IMG/VR virus record: IMGVR_UViG_3300048913_000302
Span: 1 to 64,000 of that record
Direction: 5' to 3' (one strand)
Origin: an uncultured virus (IMG/VR IMGVR_UViG_3300048913_000302)
Taxonomy: Duplodnaviria > Heunggongvirae > Uroviricota > Caudoviricetes
Length of the DNA stretch: 64,000 nt
The notes beneath the pieces are model-generated. The model was not told the origin of the DNA and did no database searches. It saw nothing but the letters and a program-made list of their open reading frames with translations. Made by a program: the position numbers and the translations under genes. Below, one piece after another: positions 418 through 62,261 of this stretch; position 1 is the first letter of the stretch, and every line of letters starts with the position of its first letter.

Positions 418-457
418 CATACAGCCGGTGGGTCTCCCCACCGGCTGTATGCTGTAA
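418..457. terminator. Hairpin + TATGC element
   Basis: catacagccggtggg-tctc-cccaccggctgtatg, 15-bp stem, no adjacent U-tract; 3' arm continues as TATGCTGTAA. Confidence 0.7.
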
Positions 458-2491: not shown

Positions 2492-3103
2492 ATGCGTTTC
2501 TCTATCTTCGTAAATGAGCGCGGTGGTCCTAAAGACATCTTCCCACTCACCGAGCTCGATGGCTATCAGCTAACCGCCGAACATATCGAAACCTACCTCA
2601 AGACCAACGGTCTGGAGGCGTCTCAACTCTCCACTTCGGTGTGGGCTGAATTGGAAAATGCCTACGTGGCGTTTCCTGTGGCTGGGATCTTCCGCCTGCG
2701 TGATCTCCGTCTCATGGAAGAAGGGGGTGAAGAACTCAAACCGTTCTCCAGCGATGTCCGTCGTATCGTCCTACGCACAATGATTCAAGCGCAGAACGAC
2801 CTAGGCTTCGGTGGTCAACAATGGACAGCCTTCAACCGAGTCATCGATAAAGGATTAGGCATTCGTAATAACGGGCGCGACGATGGTCCTGACGACGTCA
2901 CTGCCGAAGAGTTTGAGTTCGATCTGGTACGGGCCATTCAGTGCATCGGTGAAGCTGTGCGCGACATCGTGATCCAACTCAACGACCGCAACGAGCGCGG
3001 TGACGTGGTTAAGGAACTGGACGGCGTGCTCGGCAAGCTCGAGCAACGTGCACGGTATCTCAAGACCAGTAACTCGTCGCCATTGCGGCGGCGTCCGCGG
3101 TAA
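2492..3103 (+). CDS. Hypothetical protein
   Basis: Start moved to ATG 2492 (AAGGA SD, follows previous stop). Confidence 0.75.
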   Translation: MRFSIFVNERGGPKDIFPLTELDGYQLTAEHIETYLKTNGLEASQLSTSVWAELENAYVAFPVAGIFRLRDLRLMEEGGEELKPFSSDVRRIVLRTMIQAQNDLGFGGQQWTAFNRVIDKGLGIRNNGRDDGPDDVTAEEFEFDLVRAIQCIGEAVRDIVIQLNDRNERGDVVKELDGVLGKLEQRARYLKTSNSSPLRRRPR

Positions 3104-3109
3104 CGCGTG

Positions 3110-3144
3110 AGAGCAGGTGGATTCGTCCCCTGCTCTTTTTTTTT
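3110..3144 (+). terminator. Hairpin + U-tract terminator
   Basis: agagcagg...cctgctct followed by a T-run. Confidence 0.7.
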
Positions 3145-3188
3145 GTTACCGGGCGACTTAACGGTATAGATGGTTAGGGGAATTACCG

Positions 3189-3488
3189 GTGAATGTCGAA
3201 AACACATTGAAGAAAACAGACCTCAACAAACGAGGGATGTTTGTTCTGATTCATGAGGACACTGGACGCATCTACGCAACTACCGCGGTCGACATCCACA
3301 AAGAGCTGGGTGAACTCATCGCACAACTCGATGCAGGCAAATGTCCCAACGTGTTGTTGCAAAGACTCTACAAGGCTGGACCTAAGTTTGAAGTATTGAC
3401 TAAGGTCTCGGCCGATGGAATGCGTGGGGCTAAGAAAGACCTGATTGGATTCCGTGGTGTTACGTCCAGTTACCTATTTGTCAATTGA
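3189..3488 (+). CDS. Degenerate GIY-YIG-fold protein
   Basis: GMFVLIHEDTGRIYATT...L..GKCPNVLLQRLY parallels the GIY...YVG...R...H...L..G.H....LQ pattern of I-TevI-type domains. Confidence 0.55.
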   Translation: MNVENTLKKTDLNKRGMFVLIHEDTGRIYATTAVDIHKELGELIAQLDAGKCPNVLLQRLYKAGPKFEVLTKVSADGMRGAKKDLIGFRGVTSSYLFVN

Positions 3489-3541: not shown

Positions 3542-6500
3542 TTAGTCGGTATCGCCCTTGATGGAACGGTCCATCCAGTGCAGCAACGCAATACTGACTT
3601 CCTCGGCCACTTCTGCCGGGTATGGTAAGCTGGACGTGAACACTTGATCACCGGTCTGGTAATCCCAGAGATCGATGAAGTCCATGTACAGAGGCTCGTT
3701 GTACTCGTGCAGCTTGCTGATGAAGTCATCGCCGCCAGAGAAGTCCAACCAACCCTGCCAGTACCACTTCCCATCGGCCCAAGTGAGCAAGTCCTCAACG
3801 ATCTTGACTGCCTGCAAGATCTCAGCCGACGTCAGCGCTTTGATCTTCTCAGGAGCTCGAGCTGGAATGATCTTGCGACCCAACCAGATCTCGTGAGAGC
3901 GGGCATCCACCTTCTCAGTCGTGATGACGTGACCACACAGACTGGCTCGACCTTTAAGACCAAAGACAGTCGGTTTAACGGCAGCGAATTCCTTCTCTGC
4001 AGCTTCAACCAACTTCTGTACTTCGTCGTGATTGTCCTTGTCGATCTCAGGACTGATCTTGGCTTCGTACTTGTCTCGGATCGATTCGACCTGATGTTCC
4101 ATTCCGGACAGCAAGCCGTCAGCCTCTTTGACCAGCGATTTGGTCTGCTCAACGGCGTGAGTCACTTCACTCAAGGTCGGCAGGAACTTCCCGTTGACCG
4201 AAAGAGCTGGAGACATGCCGCCGGTAGAGACTTCTTCGTTGAAGGTCTGTTTGGCCAGCCAGGATTGGTTACCGAAGTACTTGCTCAGATACTCCTTCAC
4301 CGCCGCTGCGTTACGACGCATGTCGTTCTGCATGACCTGGTTGTGTTCGAACTTACGCTTCTCAGCGGGAGTCTTGATGCCGAATGCTTTCTTGATGCCG
4401 GCGACGATGGTGGAGAGACTTTCCATCGACGCTTCCTGCACGACGATCTGCACATGCCAGCCACGCAACGCGTCAGCAATCCGCACATCCTCACACCGCA
4501 GGATGTTGGACGTGATGGTGCGCTGAGTTTTGTACTCGCCTTTGATTCCATTCGCAGGGTTGTGGTTGGCCATCCAGCCGTCCGCTGCATCCGCCTTGAT
4601 CGAGTACACCACGACATGTAGATTGTGGATGTCTTTGATCGACAATGGTTCGGCGACGTGGATGATCATCTTCTTGGTTTTGTTATCGCACTGATAACGA
4701 TTGAGCTGGAACTTCTTCTCAATCGCCGAGGAGATTCCCAACATCACCGCACTGTCTTTGTCGTCAGACGCGTACAGCCAAGTGTTGTCTTCGGTGTTAT
4801 CCCACTGGACCAGCTCGCCAGTGTGTTGGAAGCCAGGCTTCAGTTCCGTCTGGCGGAATGCCGAGCCGTGATACAGGTAGTTCGGCAGGTCGATGTGTTC
4901 CATTTCAGTCTCTGCAGATTCAAGGGCCAGGTCCTCTTCATCACGAATGTCGATGAAGTTCTTCTTAAAGCTTTCGGCTTCCATGCTGAGGCATTCCCAC
5001 ATCCCGTCCTCACCCATTTTCGCTTCCAGCGTCAGGGTTTCGAGGTCGACGTTATTCACGCCAACGATCGAGGACACCATCGCAGCCGACCATTCAAGGA
5101 TGTCGTTACTGCGAGTGGAGATGTTTGGCTTATCACCAGTGTCGAGCAGGAAGTCCCACACGTTGACAGTGCAGTCCTGACCCAGTCGCGCAGCTCGTGC
5201 GATTGTCTGAGTACGGATAGCTTCACGGAACGGCTGGTTCAACATCAGCAAGTCCGTCGCCACGGTGAGCGGTACAGCGGTAGACAACGACTGGTAGGTC
5301 GCAGCCAGAGGGTTCAGATCAGGATCGTCGTAGAACTTCTTGACGATACCGGCCAGATCCTTGTTGGTTGCCCCGTAGACCTTGGCAGGCGAGTAGCCTT
5401 TGTGGAACAGCAGATCTGCTGTTGCTTCCAGCACCTCGACGTAGGAGGTGAAGATCAACGTCTTCTTCTCAGCCCGGTCGATGTAGTGTTCGAAGTCGAT
5501 GTGCGCAATCATGTCCAGATGGCACTTCGAACGCATACCGCCAACGATACGACCCAAGGCTTCGCCCATGACCTTAAGTTTGACGTACTTGACCACACTG
5601 CGAGCCGATTTGAATTCCGGCTTCATGTGGTTAGGCAGAAGCGGGATAATCGTCTTCAGCTCGTACTTGTTGCAAAGCATCGCCTCAGCTTTCATCAACT
5701 TCGGATCGAAGCCCGAAGAGATCACTTTGATCGCAGCCTGGTACTCTTTGTACTGGCGACGGTCGACATCTGTCCTCAAGTGTCCTTCGAACAGCTTCAG
5801 AGCCGAGAGGTATTGTCCCTCGTAGTGCTTGAAGTTCTTATCGTAGTACGCCAAGCGCTCATCGATGAACTTACGAAGGATGTTACCGATGTTCTCCAGC
5901 GTGTACTTCTCACCGTCCGGCATCTTCACCTTGATCTGGTGAGTCTTCACGGGAATGTCGACCACGTCCTGTTTCGGTACGTGGAACTTCAAGTGACCGA
6001 TACGGTTACGCAGGATGTCGTTAGCACGCTTGGCGTCGCGACCGTAGATCTTGCGGAAGCGTTCTTCTGCTTCTGGAGTGAAGAGGGTGTCGACACAACG
6101 CATGAACGGGATACACTCGATACCCAGCGCCAGAATCGGAGTCCCCGATGCCCAGAGGCAGTAATCCACGCACGGCATCTGGCAGAGCTCGATCAGGGTC
6201 TGAGTCCGATCGGCAGCCAAACGGTTGAAGTTGTGAGACTCGTCCAGAATAACGAACGTGTTCTTGAAGTCCTTCCAATTCGCCTTGATGAAGTCGACCA
6301 GCGTCGAGAGGGCTTCGTAGTGCACCACGTAGTAGTGCGAGTCGGTGGTGAGGGGCGCGTTCTGCGCACTGGTCCAGTACGGACGCTTGTGCGTAACGAT
6401 ATCCTTGAGAGTGTCTTCCCACACACGCTCCACGGCGTTCTTCGGCGAGATGATCACTACCTTGCCAGCATGTAGACCAGCAGCCACCACAAGGTCGGTA

Positions 6501-6976
6501 ACGGTCTTGCCAGTACCAGGGCCTGCGTCGAGCATGTAGCCACGCAGACGATAGGTCGGCACCATCACACCGAAGTGTTGGGCAAACGCTTTCTGGAACG
6601 GCTTGAGCGGGAAGGAGACGACGTGATCCACCACGCTCATGTCGACGATGGACTTCACGTCCTTATCGATGTCACCCAGCCAGGTGTTGGCCTTGAGTTC
6701 GTCGATGACCTTACGCAGGACACGTTTGGGGAGACGGGTCTGGGTGTCGGCGTAGAGTGTTTCCATGATGTACAGAAAGTCCAGTGCGAAGAAGTGCAAG
6801 AACTTCACTTCACCACTGCGGATCAAACTGAACATGTTGTTGGCTAGCGCCTTCGAACCCCAGACGCGTTGCATGTCACGCAGCAGTTGGTGGGATGCGA
6901 TCCCTTCCACGCTGACGTACTTTGGACTGGTGCTGACTCGCACCATTCCTAACTTTGATCGAAGGCCACTGAACAT
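3542..6976 (-). CDS. SF2 (SNF2-like) helicase fused to an ADP-ribosyltransferase-like domain and a C-terminal domain; probable virion head protein
   Basis: Motifs GPGTGKT, ILDESH, SGTP, QTIARAARLGQ in the N-terminal ~640 aa; LYHGS...LKPG...LYAS domain; LSME, LALE and ASME protease-type sites. Confidence 0.8.
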   Translation of the reverse strand: MFSGLRSKLGMVRVSTSPKYVSVEGIASHQLLRDMQRVWGSKALANNMFSLIRSGEVKFLHFFALDFLYIMETLYADTQTRLPKRVLRKVIDELKANTWLGDIDKDVKSIVDMSVVDHVVSFPLKPFQKAFAQHFGVMVPTYRLRGYMLDAGPGTGKTVTDLVVAAGLHAGKVVIISPKNAVERVWEDTLKDIVTHKRPYWTSAQNAPLTTDSHYYVVHYEALSTLVDFIKANWKDFKNTFVILDESHNFNRLAADRTQTLIELCQMPCVDYCLWASGTPILALGIECIPFMRCVDTLFTPEAEERFRKIYGRDAKRANDILRNRIGHLKFHVPKQDVVDIPVKTHQIKVKMPDGEKYTLENIGNILRKFIDERLAYYDKNFKHYEGQYLSALKLFEGHLRTDVDRRQYKEYQAAIKVISSGFDPKLMKAEAMLCNKYELKTIIPLLPNHMKPEFKSARSVVKYVKLKVMGEALGRIVGGMRSKCHLDMIAHIDFEHYIDRAEKKTLIFTSYVEVLEATADLLFHKGYSPAKVYGATNKDLAGIVKKFYDDPDLNPLAATYQSLSTAVPLTVATDLLMLNQPFREAIRTQTIARAARLGQDCTVNVWDFLLDTGDKPNISTRSNDILEWSAAMVSSIVGVNNVDLETLTLEAKMGEDGMWECLSMEAESFKKNFIDIRDEEDLALESAETEMEHIDLPNYLYHGSAFRQTELKPGFQHTGELVQWDNTEDNTWLYASDDKDSAVMLGISSAIEKKFQLNRYQCDNKTKKMIIHVAEPLSIKDIHNLHVVVYSIKADAADGWMANHNPANGIKGEYKTQRTITSNILRCEDVRIADALRGWHVQIVVQEASMESLSTIVAGIKKAFGIKTPAEKRKFEHNQVMQNDMRRNAAAVKEYLSKYFGNQSWLAKQTFNEEVSTGGMSPALSVNGKFLPTLSEVTHAVEQTKSLVKEADGLLSGMEHQVESIRDKYEAKISPEIDKDNHDEVQKLVEAAEKEFAAVKPTVFGLKGRASLCGHVITTEKVDARSHEIWLGRKIIPARAPEKIKALTSAEILQAVKIVEDLLTWADGKWYWQGWLDFSGGDDFISKLHEYNEPLYMDFIDLWDYQTGDQVFTSSLPYPAEVAEEVSIALLHWMDRSIKGDTD

Positions 6977-7029
6977 GGCTCACTCCCCGGTATCGTGTTG
7001 GCATGTAGCGCCGATAAAGGCACGGTAAT

Positions 7030-7038
7030 CATAGAATT
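7030..7038 (-). promoter_or_regulatory. Candidate late promoter AATTCTATG
   Basis: Same 9-mer also at 26188 and 26762, always upstream of - strand virion-type genes; contains the phiKZ late consensus TATG. Confidence 0.5.
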
Positions 7039-7102
7039 ACGCACTGAAACAAATTCCATTGATACATTGTCCACATGTATTCAATCCATTGGAGATGTCC
7101 GC

Positions 7103-8428
7103 ATGAAACTTACCGCTAACGTACAGTTCAACGCTATCCAACCAATGCCTCCTCAGGTGGCTTATCCGGTCGTCGATGGCAGTATCCCACCCATCAGTCC
7201 AGATGTCGGTTTACTCAACGCCTTGCGTAATACCCGCACTCGCGATTCGGCAACGCTGATCGAAGTAGCGAGCGGTTGGGACAAGCAGCGGTTCTCGTTC
7301 AAGATCGCCGTCACGTTTCCGAATAATGCGATGCGAGGTGGCGATCACTGCGTTGTCTACGGCCACAGCGAGGCTACCGAAGAACTCACCCCAGAAACGA
7401 AGCTTTATATCGACCGAGTAGTTGGACTACGTTCGGCGATGTATCGCATGCCGCTTAGCGAGGCTACTGAGATCTTGTCGAGTCGCTACGACACCCTCAT
7501 GTTACCGAAGGGTGGTCGAGGAGACATCCCTGGATTCCGTCAAGACCCGTCTTCGGTAGTGCGCCGCATCAACTCAGTCTTGACGTTCGGCAGCCTCGTG
7601 CCGGATGACCACGATGTCCGCAACTTGACCGGGGTCATCAACAACCGCGCGGTATCGGCGAACATAGCTGATATCGATACCGAACTCTATTGTGACAGGC
7701 TTGAGAAAGCGATCGACAACGTGATCTCCACCGGCGGGGGGCCGACTATCTTCCGAGAAGAAGCCGAGATTTATTCGGAAGTCGAGGACCGACTCGAGCC
7801 AGTCAGGTTCGAACACACTCGGGTGTATGACGTACTGTCAGCCAGAACCAACTGGGTGTACGACGGCTTCTTCACCTACGAGGAACTCAACGACATGCTC
7901 GCCGAAGACTCCAAGATTTCTGTGGAGCGCAAGTACCTCAAAGTAGTCGAAGAAACCGGACACTCGTCTGCAGCCCGTCGTATCTTCCACGACCATCTGA
8001 AGAAGCTGGTTCCAGAAGCCGCATCCCTCGGGATGGAACACATATGGGCCGAATGGTTCAACGACAATGGGGAAGTGGTCAAGGTCAACGGCACTGTCCG
8101 CGCGATCTATCCTGAGTTGTCGTGGCATAGCTCGGACTTTGAAGACTTCCTGACTCCAGAAGAAGCAGAACTGGAAGTCCGTGCCAAGAAACCAACTTCG
8201 GCGGATCTGCGAGAGTACTACGGTGTGAGCAAGTACCGTGTCAAGATCGATATGGACTTGGCCGGTAGAATCGTGGGTATGGTGCAACTCAACGAACATC
8301 CAGTCGAAGTGTTCGTCATGCCTGCGTATGCTCTACCAGTGTGCTCTGGTTTGATTGGTGATGAACGCAGTCTGGACAACATCTGCCAAACGGTCAAATG
8401 GATGGTTTCCTCGAAGTACGGTCTCTAA
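7103..8428 (+). CDS. Possible phiKZ gp68-like (nvRNAP promoter-specificity subunit) homolog, divergent
   Basis: GW...RFSFKIAV...VYGHSE...PETKLYIDRV and C-terminal DLAGRI...FVMPAYA resemble my recollection of the gp68 family; GGAG SD at 7091. Confidence 0.45.
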   Translation: MKLTANVQFNAIQPMPPQVAYPVVDGSIPPISPDVGLLNALRNTRTRDSATLIEVASGWDKQRFSFKIAVTFPNNAMRGGDHCVVYGHSEATEELTPETKLYIDRVVGLRSAMYRMPLSEATEILSSRYDTLMLPKGGRGDIPGFRQDPSSVVRRINSVLTFGSLVPDDHDVRNLTGVINNRAVSANIADIDTELYCDRLEKAIDNVISTGGGPTIFREEAEIYSEVEDRLEPVRFEHTRVYDVLSARTNWVYDGFFTYEELNDMLAEDSKISVERKYLKVVEETGHSSAARRIFHDHLKKLVPEAASLGMEHIWAEWFNDNGEVVKVNGTVRAIYPELSWHSSDFEDFLTPEEAELEVRAKKPTSADLREYYGVSKYRVKIDMDLAGRIVGMVQLNEHPVEVFVMPAYALPVCSGLIGDERSLDNICQTVKWMVSSKYGL

Positions 8429-8477: not shown

Positions 8478-8517
8478 GTCTTGACTGCTATGTCACCACC
8501 TCCCCGGTTCTCCAATC

Positions 8518-8925
8518 ATGAACAAAGAAACAGTAGAAGGCGCCAAACAGAGACTCTTTGATCTGGCCATGAAAGACCCGTTCCTTGGACCAGAATCTCT
8601 CAAGGCTGGACTTGACGGCATGGAACTCATCTTCCTCCCGACTGGAGAGACGATCGGGTTCATCATGCCGATGAAAGGCGATGGCGGATATTATCGCGTA
8701 GGGTCTATCTACATCGATCCAAAACACCGCGGTAAGCGATACGCGGCACAGTTCATCCGTCAATACTTTTCAAACAAGGCAGGGCAGGCATGGATCAGAC
8801 CTGAGAACAAACCGAGTCAAACTGCCTTTCTGACCAGTGGGTTCTACAAGAGCGGACGTAAGACCACCGCTAACGGAAAGGTCTACGAAGAGTGGCTCAA
8901 TCGCCCAAGAACCATGGGCTGGTAG
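8518..8925 (+). CDS. GNAT-family acetyltransferase
   Basis: Motif A IYIDPKHRGKRYA and motif B EN.PS...F..SGF. Confidence 0.8.
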   Translation: MNKETVEGAKQRLFDLAMKDPFLGPESLKAGLDGMELIFLPTGETIGFIMPMKGDGGYYRVGSIYIDPKHRGKRYAAQFIRQYFSNKAGQAWIRPENKPSQTAFLTSGFYKSGRKTTANGKVYEEWLNRPRTMGW

Positions 8926-8961
8926 TCGCAGTAAACTTTTACTGAGCGTTTACTATTATAT

Positions 8962-9180
8962 GCGTGGATGCTTCGGACGGTTCTGGGCAAACCGTACGAT
9001 TCAAGCTCTCCCAGGGTCCCGACTCTCCCGGGGTAGAGCCGCCGCAGGTCGTTCCCCCGGACGACCTTCAGTCACGTCGCTTATAAGGGGAGCGGCGGGG
9101 CTAGCTGGAGACTGAGCGCTCAGCCGTTAGCATATTCTCTCGTGGCCGGGGCGGGAATGTGCTAACGGATGAAGTATCGG
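8962..9180 (+). ncRNA. Candidate structured ncRNA (~215 nt, closed multi-helix fold)
   Basis: Intergenic; starts at TATG 8959-8962; ends pair (gatgcttc/gaagtatc); five internal helices; followed by a UUCG hairpin. Confidence 0.6.
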
Positions 9181-9193
9181 TCAGAAAAGGTGT

Positions 9194-9238
9194 GTAGACC
9201 TCCTAGGGCTTCGGTCCTAGGAGGTCTGTATGCTGTAA
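9194..9238 (+). terminator. Hairpin (cUUCGg) + TATGCTGTAA
   Basis: agacctcctaggg-cttcgg-tcctaggaggtct. Confidence 0.75.
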
Positions 9239-9303
9239 CTTTAAAAATATGCTGGTAATACATTGTAGTCTTGATTAACCATCATCCATTAGGAGCAAGA
9301 CAA

Positions 9304-10125
9304 ATGAACTATCTGTCCCCTGAAGAACGCCGTGTCGTTAACGCCGTAAGTAACTGGCCGCGCCGTCCTCTCAACGCTGTAGAAACAGCGGTGCGCAACA
9401 TCAGCAACTTAGTGATCGGTTACCGTGGTATCGGTACCATTGCCGTAGGTCGTGCGGAAGCTATCAAGCAAGTCATCGCCGACCTGGACGCTGCGACCAG
9501 CAACTACCAGGTACGTGAGCTGGCACGGGCGGCGATCGACGATGATGGCAAGTTGAAGGAGTTGATCGGTAAATACCCTCACGTCGAATTCCATGACGTG
9601 CTCAACAACCCTCCTGTTGACGGGATCATGGGCCTGGCGCTGAGTGGCGTGAAGGAAACTTCCATCGTCAGTGCTCTGGAGTGGTTGCGAGACTTCCGGA
9701 AGGTGGTCTTCCAACTCCCGGATTACGGCCATGCCTACCACGTCCACACCCCGAACACCCCGCACAACGTCCTGCGTAATGCAGCAATCAATGACGGGTT
9801 CGAAGCAGGTTTCGGAATCGCACTGCGTAAAGATCTGCAAGACGAAATCAATCGTCTCTTCCACGTTAAGCATCAGAACGACCTGTATCTGATCGAACAA
9901 CACCAGTTGTATCTATTGTCGGTAGATGAAGTGCTACATCGTTTCGGAATTGGGCTGCCGATCAAGGTAACCCCATGCCGTGAAAAGACCTTCACCGTAA
10001 CTATGACCTTCTCGCGCTCCGCATACGTCGGGCGGGCTAACGTTCCGGTCCTCTCGGTATCAGCTACCTCGTACCCGCTCCTCGACGTCGGTGACGTAGG
10101 ACAGCTCTACCACTTCGCCCTGTAA
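9304..10125 (+). CDS. Hypothetical protein
   Basis: ATG 9304 with AGGAG SD; 273 aa. Confidence 0.75.
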   Translation: MNYLSPEERRVVNAVSNWPRRPLNAVETAVRNISNLVIGYRGIGTIAVGRAEAIKQVIADLDAATSNYQVRELARAAIDDDGKLKELIGKYPHVEFHDVLNNPPVDGIMGLALSGVKETSIVSALEWLRDFRKVVFQLPDYGHAYHVHTPNTPHNVLRNAAINDGFEAGFGIALRKDLQDEINRLFHVKHQNDLYLIEQHQLYLLSVDEVLHRFGIGLPIKVTPCREKTFTVTMTFSRSAYVGRANVPVLSVSATSYPLLDVGDVGQLYHFAL

Positions 10126-13178: not shown

Positions 13179-13217
13179 CGACATACAGCCGGGGCATTGC
13201 GCCCCGGCTGTATGCTG
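13179..13217. terminator. Bidirectional hairpin with TATG flanks
   Basis: catacagccggggc-attgc-gccccggctgtatg between convergent genes. Confidence 0.75.
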
Positions 13218-42146: not shown

Positions 42147-42182
42147 GCATACAGCCGGTGGCTTGCGCCACCGGCTGTATGC
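42147..42182. terminator. Bidirectional hairpin with TATGC flanks
   Basis: gcatacagccggtggc-ttgc-gccaccggctgtatgc, 16-bp stem. Confidence 0.8.
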
Positions 42183-53044: not shown

Positions 53045-53092
53045 GCATACAGCCCGGGCATTGTGCCCGGGCTGTATGTCTTCTTTTTTTTT
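53045..53092. terminator. Bidirectional terminator
   Basis: gcatacagcccgggca-ttg-tgcccgggctgtatgt followed by a T-run on +. Confidence 0.8.
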
Positions 53093-62225: not shown

Positions 62226-62261
62226 GCATACAGCCGGGGCCAGTGCCCCGGCTGTATGTCG
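62226..62261. terminator. Bidirectional hairpin with TATG flanks
   Basis: gcatacagccggggc-cagt-gccccggctgtatgt. Confidence 0.8.

Follow-up and report, generated by a model that had tools for sequence, protein, structure and literature searches.

A predicted non-coding RNA gene of a phiKZ-like jumbo phage with a covarying loop-loop helix and candidate longer relatives

We identified what comparative sequence analysis predicts to be a real, and apparently undescribed, gene for a plus-strand non-coding RNA in a 378-nt intergenic gap (8926-9303) between a GNAT-like ORF (8518-8925) and an ORF at 9304-10125. The window analyzed here is the first 64 kb (64,000 nt) of a 116-kb virus contig, and the complete phage is represented by a 243-kb IMG/VR genome, G001. 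A first-pass annotation had proposed a novel, stand-alone, plus-strand late phage RNA at this site. As a prediction this is borne out by the lack of any matching Rfam family, by promoter and terminator motifs that are kept among relatives, and by strong covariation that includes a pseudoknot.

The locus and the extent of the RNA gene

Sequence comparison places the window phage among the phiKZ-like jumbo phages, and because of this kinship it is presumably nucleus-forming. Its helicase shows up to 43% identity to those of phiKZ-like phages (206 records), closer helicase relatives at 70-84% identity also being on record, and an RNA polymerase beta-type match (RNA_pol_Rpb2_6) was found in all three genomes tested, that in G001 being below the cut-off. 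The RNA gene lies 2 kb upstream of the helicase gene in divergent orientation, and model searches found no second copy in G001.

3542..6976, minus strand: SNF2/DEAD-like helicase, homologue of phiKZ gp203 (Pfam/PHROG and protein searches), the landmark of the locus
8518..8925, plus strand: GNAT-like ORF directly upstream of the RNA gene (Pfam Acetyltransf_7, E=2e-4, below the curated cut-off)
8959..8962, plus strand: TATG late-promoter motif; the phiKZ rule puts +1 at G8962, the predicted start
8962..9233, plus strand: predicted non-coding RNA transcript of ~270 nt including the terminator hairpin (gap, covariance-model family and purifying selection; putative ends)
9189..9197, plus strand: GGUGUGUAG tail (alignment A2), GUGUG-like in most relatives
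9195..9233, plus strand: terminator-type hairpin followed by UAUGC (stem 9195-9209/9214-9228, UUCG loop)
9304..10125: 273-aa ORF downstream of the RNA gene, without a Pfam or PHROG family

The neighboring protein genes have features of their own. The helicase carries a ~480-aa C-terminal extension, partly phrog_13483, that is absent from most cultured relatives, and Hint or homing-endonuclease Pfam domains are present in several of its relatives. The GNAT-like gene is 32-46% conserved in the clade, is tandemly duplicated in three loci (L147, L152, and L200) and also occurs in phage FLC9; protein searches with it and with a 440-aa ORF returned nothing beyond the phage's own cluster. Homologues of the 273-aa ORF, 25-33% identical, are found in several relatives at shifting positions, and one locus (L002) carries a 26%-identical copy with no RNA before it. 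Further long ORF-free gaps are present on the same contig (G000 C1 65928-66362, 68384-68748, 100195-100656, and 104510-105980).

The phiKZ late promoter consensus is given in the available part of PMC7598289 as T-3ATG+1, with G as +1. A TATG lies 14-53 nt 5' of the RNA core in all 21 full-length matches to our family model R1 (see below), the TATG frequency on the contig being 0.0012 per nt. A terminator hairpin follows the RNA in the same 21 matches, at a distance of 55-78 nt in 16 and of 253-271 nt in five, so that the promoter and the terminator claimed for the RNA are both retained as conserved motifs. In four loci (L148, L149, L154, and L205) the 250 nt 3' of the RNA core hold another TATG and a further stretch of conserved non-coding sequence, both of which precede the terminator (in L148 at ~6930-7180, minus strand).

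The hairpin at 9195..9233 resembles the phiKZ terminator motif, a hairpin plus TTAT according to the part of PMC10914365 available to us, and occurs in three variants among relatives, with pairing kept in all. The UUCG hairpin followed by TATGC was thus correctly seen, but it is not special to this RNA, since it is a repeat type with many copies on the 116-kb contig. Near-identical CATACAGCC...GGCTGTATG hairpins, often readable on both strands, stand between genes (window positions 421-452, 3495, 10849, 12586, 13185-13215, 42151-42182, 53049-53079, and 62230-62259, and others), and are probably bidirectional terminators.

We found no sign of a small ORF in the RNA: the longest stop-free runs are 19-62 codons, 13 sequences share no frame, and indels are off-frame. 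Rfam at the gathering score gave no match in the window or in six further loci, and none at E≤10; accordingly no known family takes away the novelty claimed for the RNA, and neither known self-cleaving ribozymes nor SRP, 6S, RNase P, or riboswitch RNAs were matched in the window. ARAGORN and Rfam detected no tRNA or tmRNA in the window, in agreement with the earlier remark that the RNA does not look like a tRNA. Two classes associated with known defense or toxin systems were considered and set aside. For a retron or DRT non-coding RNA, no PF00078 (RVT_1) match at E≤1 was found in G001, where the control matched 4/14 genomes and very divergent reverse transcriptases could escape, and the candidate terminal inverted repeats have a helix probability of 0.02 and are not lineage-matched. 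Type III toxin-antitoxin RNAs are repeat arrays tied to a toxin gene, and the present RNA is single copy in G001 and uncoupled from the GNAT gene in G003, G005, and FLC9.

In the literature we found no description of this RNA, including by term look-ups in the available parts of PMC10914614 and bioRxiv 10.64898/2026.09.22.753630. Intergenic regions of IMG/VR have been mined before, with 10,000 candidates (PMC10690425, available in part); three motifs of our families are absent from six supplementary files, a part of its supplement, and one of those candidates may correspond, unnamed, to the short family or to the related 400-nt RNA. The sequence evidence describes a real new RNA family outside every Rfam family tested.

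Homologues, covariation, and folding of the short RNA

Searched by blastn against 50,697 phage records, the region gave four chance matches of ~30 nt, and blastn plus nhmmer against 85 helicase loci gave the genome itself as the sole significant match; the family is therefore invisible to sequence search. Homologues were reached through a helicase alignment, from which 56 viral and 16 metagenome loci were fetched. The GNAT gene is syntenic in 20 of these loci, and in all 16 examined (four duplicate contigs were left out) the gap behind it holds the RNA: TATG, then the same series of hairpins, then a terminator. Covariance model R1 found a full-length match in 21/75 sources, plus one partial paralogue. 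Five of these matches (L148, L149, L154, L205, and L210; 66-77 bits) belong neither to the training set nor to near-copies of it and have no adjoining GNAT gene. The flanking genes vary among lineages, and in the loci compared the RNA has no protein gene as a constant companion.

All 21 sources come from phages with helicase identity of at least 56%, and L211, the one such source that gave no match, is a fragment in which the upstream DNA is missing. In whole-genome mode R1 matched 2/50 genomes, both of them training genomes. The 14 carriers placed in a helicase tree of 50 tips group as a single clade (support 0.99). A pattern scan for the short family returned 17 loci, seven on contigs already in the set; of the 10 tested by model, one matched (L224, 137 bits, the same score as L146). 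In some genomes a second, diverged RNA copy with the same 3' module lies at a distance of 3-4 kb from the first (L151 5239-5460, minus strand; L253; L198 4227-4520, minus strand).

The predicted elements of the fold are as follows.

8973..8999, plus strand: H1, 5' hairpin with core 8977-82/8990-95 (ensemble), variable and missing in some lineages
9005..9039, plus strand: H2, hairpin with conserved RCUCC loop motif (ACUCUCC, 9022-9028) (covariation)
9046..9067, plus strand: H3, hairpin whose loop CCCCGG (9055-9060) is the 5' kissing strand (covariation, kissing test)
9070..9102, plus strand: H4, hairpin with core 9075-81/9091-97; loop UAUAAGGGG in the window, GCGGGU-like in relatives
9104..9124, plus strand: H4b, short hairpin competing with lower H5, weak in the window copy
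9110..9182, plus strand: H5, long 3' helix with lower stem 9110-15/9177-82 and upper 14-bp stem 9124-37/9155-68
9122-24, plus strand: AGC of H5, with a G9123·A9169 mismatch
9146-51, plus strand: H5 loop CCGGGG, the 3' kissing strand

In an alignment of 19 distinct rows, 91% of 985 cells are paired and 46/55 pairs show change on both sides, counts that are not probabilities because the alignment was fitted to the structure and its rows are related. None of 500 shuffles scored as high, and slid registers pair at 33-41%. RNAalifold, run without a given structure on 13 sequences, recovered H2-H5 with 37/47 pairs compensated. Change on both sides is seen in 9/9 pairs of H2 (92.5% of cells paired), 6/6 of the H3 stem, and 11/11 of H4. 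The homologue search and covariation check suggested at the outset thus yielded a family with compensated pairs and a covarying pseudoknot.

Stronger evidence than these counts comes from a lineage-matching test that depends little on alignment, in which 11 lineages served to compare cognate with non-cognate pairing for 21 combinations of single-stranded regions. Pairing between the H3 and H5 loops reached -11.75 kcal/mol for cognate versus -7.5 kcal/mol for non-cognate partners (P=5e-5), and it was the only region pair with P<0.05; the other 20 showed no lineage matching, the test being blind to invariant contacts. The kiss comprises 6-9 bp in 11/11 lineages with differing letters (GCUCUC/GAGAGC, GUCCUC/GAGGAC, GUUCCC/GGGAAC, and AUCCUC/GAGGAU; CCCCGG/CCGGGG in the window), and in the alignment 95% of its cells are paired, with both-side change at 4/6 pairs. 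Since the two loops are lineage-matched in every lineage, the loop-loop pseudoknot that had been proposed between ccccgg (9055-60) and ccgggg (9146-51) is right.

All strings quoted in the first-pass annotation are present where it placed them, and five of its seven helices are well populated: acggtt/aaccgt of H1 (pair probability 0.5-0.9), gctct/agagc of H2 (0.75-0.85), aggtcgt/acgacct of H3 (0.7-0.99), cgtcgct/agcggcg of H4 (0.85), and the 14-bp stem of H5 (0.96-1.0). Homologues back the last four, whereas H1 draws its support from the ensemble and is variable in relatives: it is absent in L207 and L147 (alignment A2), and RNAalifold predicts no consensus helix there. The two remaining helices failed. 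The closing helix 8967-74/9171-78 has a probability of 0.02 (5'-versus-tail lineage test, P=0.44) and tcagtc/gactga (9068-73/9110-15) one of 0.0, GACUGA 9110-15 pairing instead with UCGGUC 9177-82 (probability 0.95); forcing both costs 7 kcal/mol. The closed multi-branched architecture therefore gives way to a string of hairpins that ends in a long 3' helix, with no closed multiloop.

Two pairings are conserved for the strand that precedes H5: it can form H4b, or it can lengthen H5 by pairing with the 3' flank. In the cognate versus non-cognate test both gave signals (H4b, P=0.0035; extended H5, P=0.034), and the H5 extension is more stable than H4b in most lineages. Only 71% of H4b cells are paired, in a model built with the H4b helix and hence biased toward it. 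This competition could possibly reflect a folding intermediate or a switch.

Folding energy alone gives weak support to a structured RNA: the z-score of -4.7 for 8959-9238 derives largely from the terminator hairpin, and the body (8959-9185) has z=-1.8 on the plus strand (9/200 shuffles as good) and z=-1.3 on the minus strand. Stems of 18 distinct homologues contain 82 G·U versus 6 A·C cells, and the RNA is therefore assigned to the plus strand, as G-U mismatches had earlier been taken to indicate.

Constraint was assessed with relatives from sequencing runs compared over 8500-9700, for which 4 of 18 listed runs were examined; no RNA run was among those listed as holding the sequence, which has no bearing on expression. 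The relative in run X11 has 43 differences in 797 nt. Of these, 37 are listed: the GNAT gene has 27, of which 25 are at third positions, the stretch 8962-9194 has four, and 8929-9132 is free of them. Thus, among listed differences, 4/233 RNA sites versus 25/136 GNAT third codon positions differ (Fisher p=2e-8, or p=0.006 against all coding sites); if all six unlisted differences fell in the RNA, p would be 2e-5. As to the four, G9179A turns U·G into U-A and improves the lower H5 stem, A9188C lies in a linker, and T9133C with G9159A makes a C·A mismatch at pair 9133:9159, which counts against the stem. T9133C alone, in run X8, gives a C-G pair. In both X8 and X11 the downstream 273-aa ORF diverges sharply and continues unlike the window's, with the adjoining RNA kept. 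These comparisons point to stronger constraint on the RNA gene than on the neighboring protein gene.

The position of the RNA, fixed near the helicase gene and behind the GNAT gene in all 16 such loci, could also be read as that of a cis element, i.e., a GNAT 3' UTR, a leader or attenuator of the next gene, a GNAT antitoxin RNA, or a DNA site such as an origin or packaging site, and the H4b versus H5 alternative looks switch-like. However, in G003, G005, and FLC9 the GNAT gene stands at another place and no RNA follows it, the downstream genes differ, and a terminator stands 3' in every case; besides, the G·U bias and the covarying kiss indicate a single-stranded RNA. We regard a cis element as improbable, and the uncoupling also led us to reject a GNAT-antitoxin link. 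GNAT is, by these comparisons, a neighbor of the RNA and not an obligatory partner.

Longer RNAs and a shared 3' module

At the equivalent position, phage DT01 and 14 IMG/VR loci carry a different, unannotated RNA of ~400 nt, in which 41/65 pairs covary and for which no Rfam match was found. Its invariant motifs are AACUCGUCGUGAUA, GUAAACGA, and CUCCU and CCGGCU loops, the CCGGCU loop shifting to another hairpin in L169 and L172. This RNA ends in an H5-type module (helix, YAG facing RWG, CC/GG, helix). Long structured regions in other clades, together spanning ~400-700 nt as against a lower size of ~230 nt in the short family, appear to end in the same, homologous 3' helix.

Pseudomonas phage DT01 (L013) 2765-3200, minus strand: ~400-nt RNA (covariation, no Rfam match)
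IMG/VR loci L162, L163, L167, L169, L170, L172, L173, L175, L176, L178-L180, L183, and L192: ~400-nt RNA
RTH11, OQ790161.1 98422-99269: long structured region, unannotated, with the putative shared 3' module
LucasX, MW825358.1 ~174250-174915: long structured region, unannotated, with the putative module
FLC9, LC667451.1 ~127700-128050: long structured region, unannotated, with the putative module
L160 2980-4150, L181 4860-5660, L251, L252, and L277: long structured regions with the putative module

Model R2, built from the 3' end of the 400-nt family, matched the short family at H5 (L146, E=0.008; L203, E=0.08) and two further RNAs, within an E range of 0.008-0.08. These scores are modest because 14 of the 33 matches are reverse-strand hairpins, which also score 20-38 bits. 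Genome-wide, R2 matched 5/41, including Xanthomonas phage RTH11 within 850 unannotated bases that LucasX shares. A joint alignment holds 27 modules, seven of which were found via the motif or R2 and are thus partly selected; 20/23 pairs are compensated, and AGC stands at the base of the 3' helix in 27/27. Opposite the G of AGC there is always a purine (A or G) and never a pyrimidine, a non-standard pair in all 27. AGC was already invariant in the first alignment of each family, before motif-based selection. Tails similar to GGUGUGUAG follow the module in RTH11, G016, and G021. The full short-family model R1 gives no match on the long RNAs, and the homology rests on one 70-90-nt hairpin; the kissing helix is confined to the short family.

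The joint model R3 matched 4/16 cultured phages, DT01 and RTH11 from the training set and FLC9 (E=9e-10) and LucasX (1e-6) as new matches, and 16/36 IMG/VR records, with G007 (9e-6) also untrained. Because it was undetected in 12/16 cultured phages (phiKZ, 201phi2-1, PhiPA3, Noxifer, D6, Goslar, PCH45, RAY, SA002, Eowyn, RP31, and SNUABM_54) and in 20/36 IMG/VR records (10/23 near-complete ones), the module is not a detectable core gene. Carriers are spread over several clades, with poor support for the deep branches, and include lineages with helicases only ~40% identical; in non-carriers the module may have been lost or may be undetected. In 19/20 genomes with a match, the match lies at most 13 kb upstream of the helicase gene and divergent from it, most of them having been found via that anchor. 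Five of the six carriers found outside helicase-anchored loci also fit this position, three of them being one clade, and FLC9 is the exception. As weak negatives, the module model gave no match in E. coli K-12 at E≤1, and a long-module pattern none in prokaryotic genomes. A second partial match in G016 (E=2e-4) lacked the flanking context and was treated as spurious.

Upstream of the gp203-type helicase of phiKZ itself (L255) lies a different closed hairpin of ~150 nt (~7850-7990, plus strand), with equivalents in D6 (L019) and Noxifer (L016) at ~4200-4420, minus strand, and in PhiPA3 (L020) at 4230-4505. These hairpins carry a (A/G)GG(A/G)GGUGAUCCAG stretch, presumably complementary to the 16S rRNA 3' end, and gave no match with the R models where these were run.

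RCUCC(U) loops are conserved in both families (as CRCUCCU in the 400-nt RNAs), and we take them to resemble the 16S 3' end. Such a loop, anti-Shine-Dalgarno-like, could pair with mRNAs or compete at ribosome-binding sites and so tune late translation, the more so as no lineage-matched internal partner for it was found. The permutation test is, however, blind to a conserved internal partner, the complementarity covers only 4-5 nt, and conserved 8-mers match E. coli rRNA no more than chance, which makes this role improbable. Outright rRNA mimicry was rejected (in E. coli 16S or 23S, 0/3 conserved 8-mers of the short family; 3 and 5 of 48 in the 400-nt family, P=0.15 and 0.10).

Group II intron domain 5 and the U6 ISL have AGC at the base of the 3' helix with CC/GG above, a G·U wobble, and a 2-nt bulge. 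The present module shares the AGC and the CC/GG, and its invariance together with a compact pseudoknotted fold and two alternative conserved conformers might suggest, by analogy, a new ribozyme in which the AGC helix binds a catalytic metal. In contrast to domain 5, the module has the G·purine mismatch in 27/27, no bulge in the window stem, a longer stem, and no other intron domains. Moreover, the RNA interrupts no gene, no Rfam ribozyme or intron was matched, and RVT_1 was not found in the complete genome. A ribozyme is in our judgment very improbable.

GOLLD and ROOL are phage-encoded, highly structured RNAs of unknown function whose covarying kissing loops are partly intermolecular; both are often found by tRNA islands, and GOLLD, often >800 nt, is conserved in its 3' region and variable in its 5' region (PMC12286853, available in part). 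The window RNA, being phage-encoded and structured with covarying kissing loops, resembles them in lifestyle, and the family likewise has a conserved 3' part and a variable 5' part; two long relatives, in FLC9 and G021, follow tRNA clusters. By sequence, however, it is no member of either: it has no Rfam match, a length of ~270 nt (~400-700 in relatives), a different conserved core, and a phiKZ-type late promoter motif. Rfam at E≤1 on seven loci of long relatives gave only tRNA-type matches and one weak miRNA match, and in five of these seven, as in the window, no tRNA was found.

The main rival to the reading that we favor below builds on this likeness: an intermolecular H3-H5 kiss would chain copies into a ring or cage of RNA alone. 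Phage phi29 pRNA, a small packaging RNA with complementary loops and a three-way junction, is a precedent for an RNA ring. The covarying loops and the nearly fixed length of H5 (43 nt from CC to GG in 8/11 lineages) would suit such an assembly, as would the GOLLD-like layout and the tRNA neighbors of two relatives. Yet covariation is blind to intra- versus intermolecular pairing, one kissing pair alone was detected, the kiss occurs only in the short family, and the window has no tRNA. Besides, in contrast to pRNA, the window RNA shows no Rfam match, a hairpin series, and no link to packaging genes. We therefore hold a homo-oligomer to be unlikely.

Nucleus-forming jumbo phages have a conserved small RNA, sRNA005 of 201phi2-1 or the phiKZ sRNA upstream of the tail gene gp182, which the available part of PMC11512511 describes as 5'UTR-derived; it belongs to a tail-gene locus, and the window RNA lies elsewhere. 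None of our three models matched PhiPA3, and the module model matched neither phiKZ nor 201phi2-1.

A tentative function and its implications

We tentatively favor, with slightly less than even confidence, a late, trans-acting scaffold or decoy that binds protein and belongs to a clade of phiKZ-like jumbo phages. It is favored because freely varying stems beside invariant non-canonical and loop bases resemble a recognition surface; action in trans, late transcription by the phage polymerase, and protein binding are what we infer from this pattern and the motifs. As this scaffold or decoy would work, the phage's own RNA polymerase would start the RNA at TATG and the hairpin terminator would end it. 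The RNA folds, as covariation shows, into a hairpin series locked by the H3-H5 kissing helix. Its most ancient part is the long 3' helix with the invariant AGC and G·purine mismatch, conserved across RNAs of 230-700 nt. The invariant non-canonical patch, together with the conserved RCUCC and GCGGGU loops, may form the recognition surfaces; for the stems only shape would matter, and the variable 5' domains would give each lineage an architecture of its own. Candidate partners are RNA-binding or virion proteins of the phage and RNA-binding or immune proteins of the host.

A bolder view, which we consider rather unlikely, takes the RNA for the compact member of an ancient, hitherto unrecognized superfamily (~230-700 nt) in nucleus-forming jumbo phages. 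The AGC/G·purine helix would then be a dedicated core, serving either as a new catalytic center or as a docking site through which the RNA becomes part of the structure of the nucleus or virion, and kissing loops would oligomerize copies.

Nucleus-forming jumbo phages are under intense study, and the available part of a 2026 review (PMC13282480) gives their non-coding RNAs one sentence and no function. The RNA gene described here suggests that these phages have an RNA-based function yet to be explored, and the grounds for considering it important are its constraint, stronger than that on the neighboring protein gene, a covariation-supported tertiary contact, and a 3' module found across distant lineages. 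Because four cultured phages (Pseudomonas DT01, Xanthomonas RTH11 and LucasX, and Burkholderia FLC9) carry long relatives in unannotated DNA, expression and function are now testable, and the small size of the 270-nt form lends itself to structural studies. The ~400-nt RNA family of DT01 merits separate study. The family would extend the small set of orphan phage RNAs, such as GOLLD and ROOL, to phages that separate transcription from translation.
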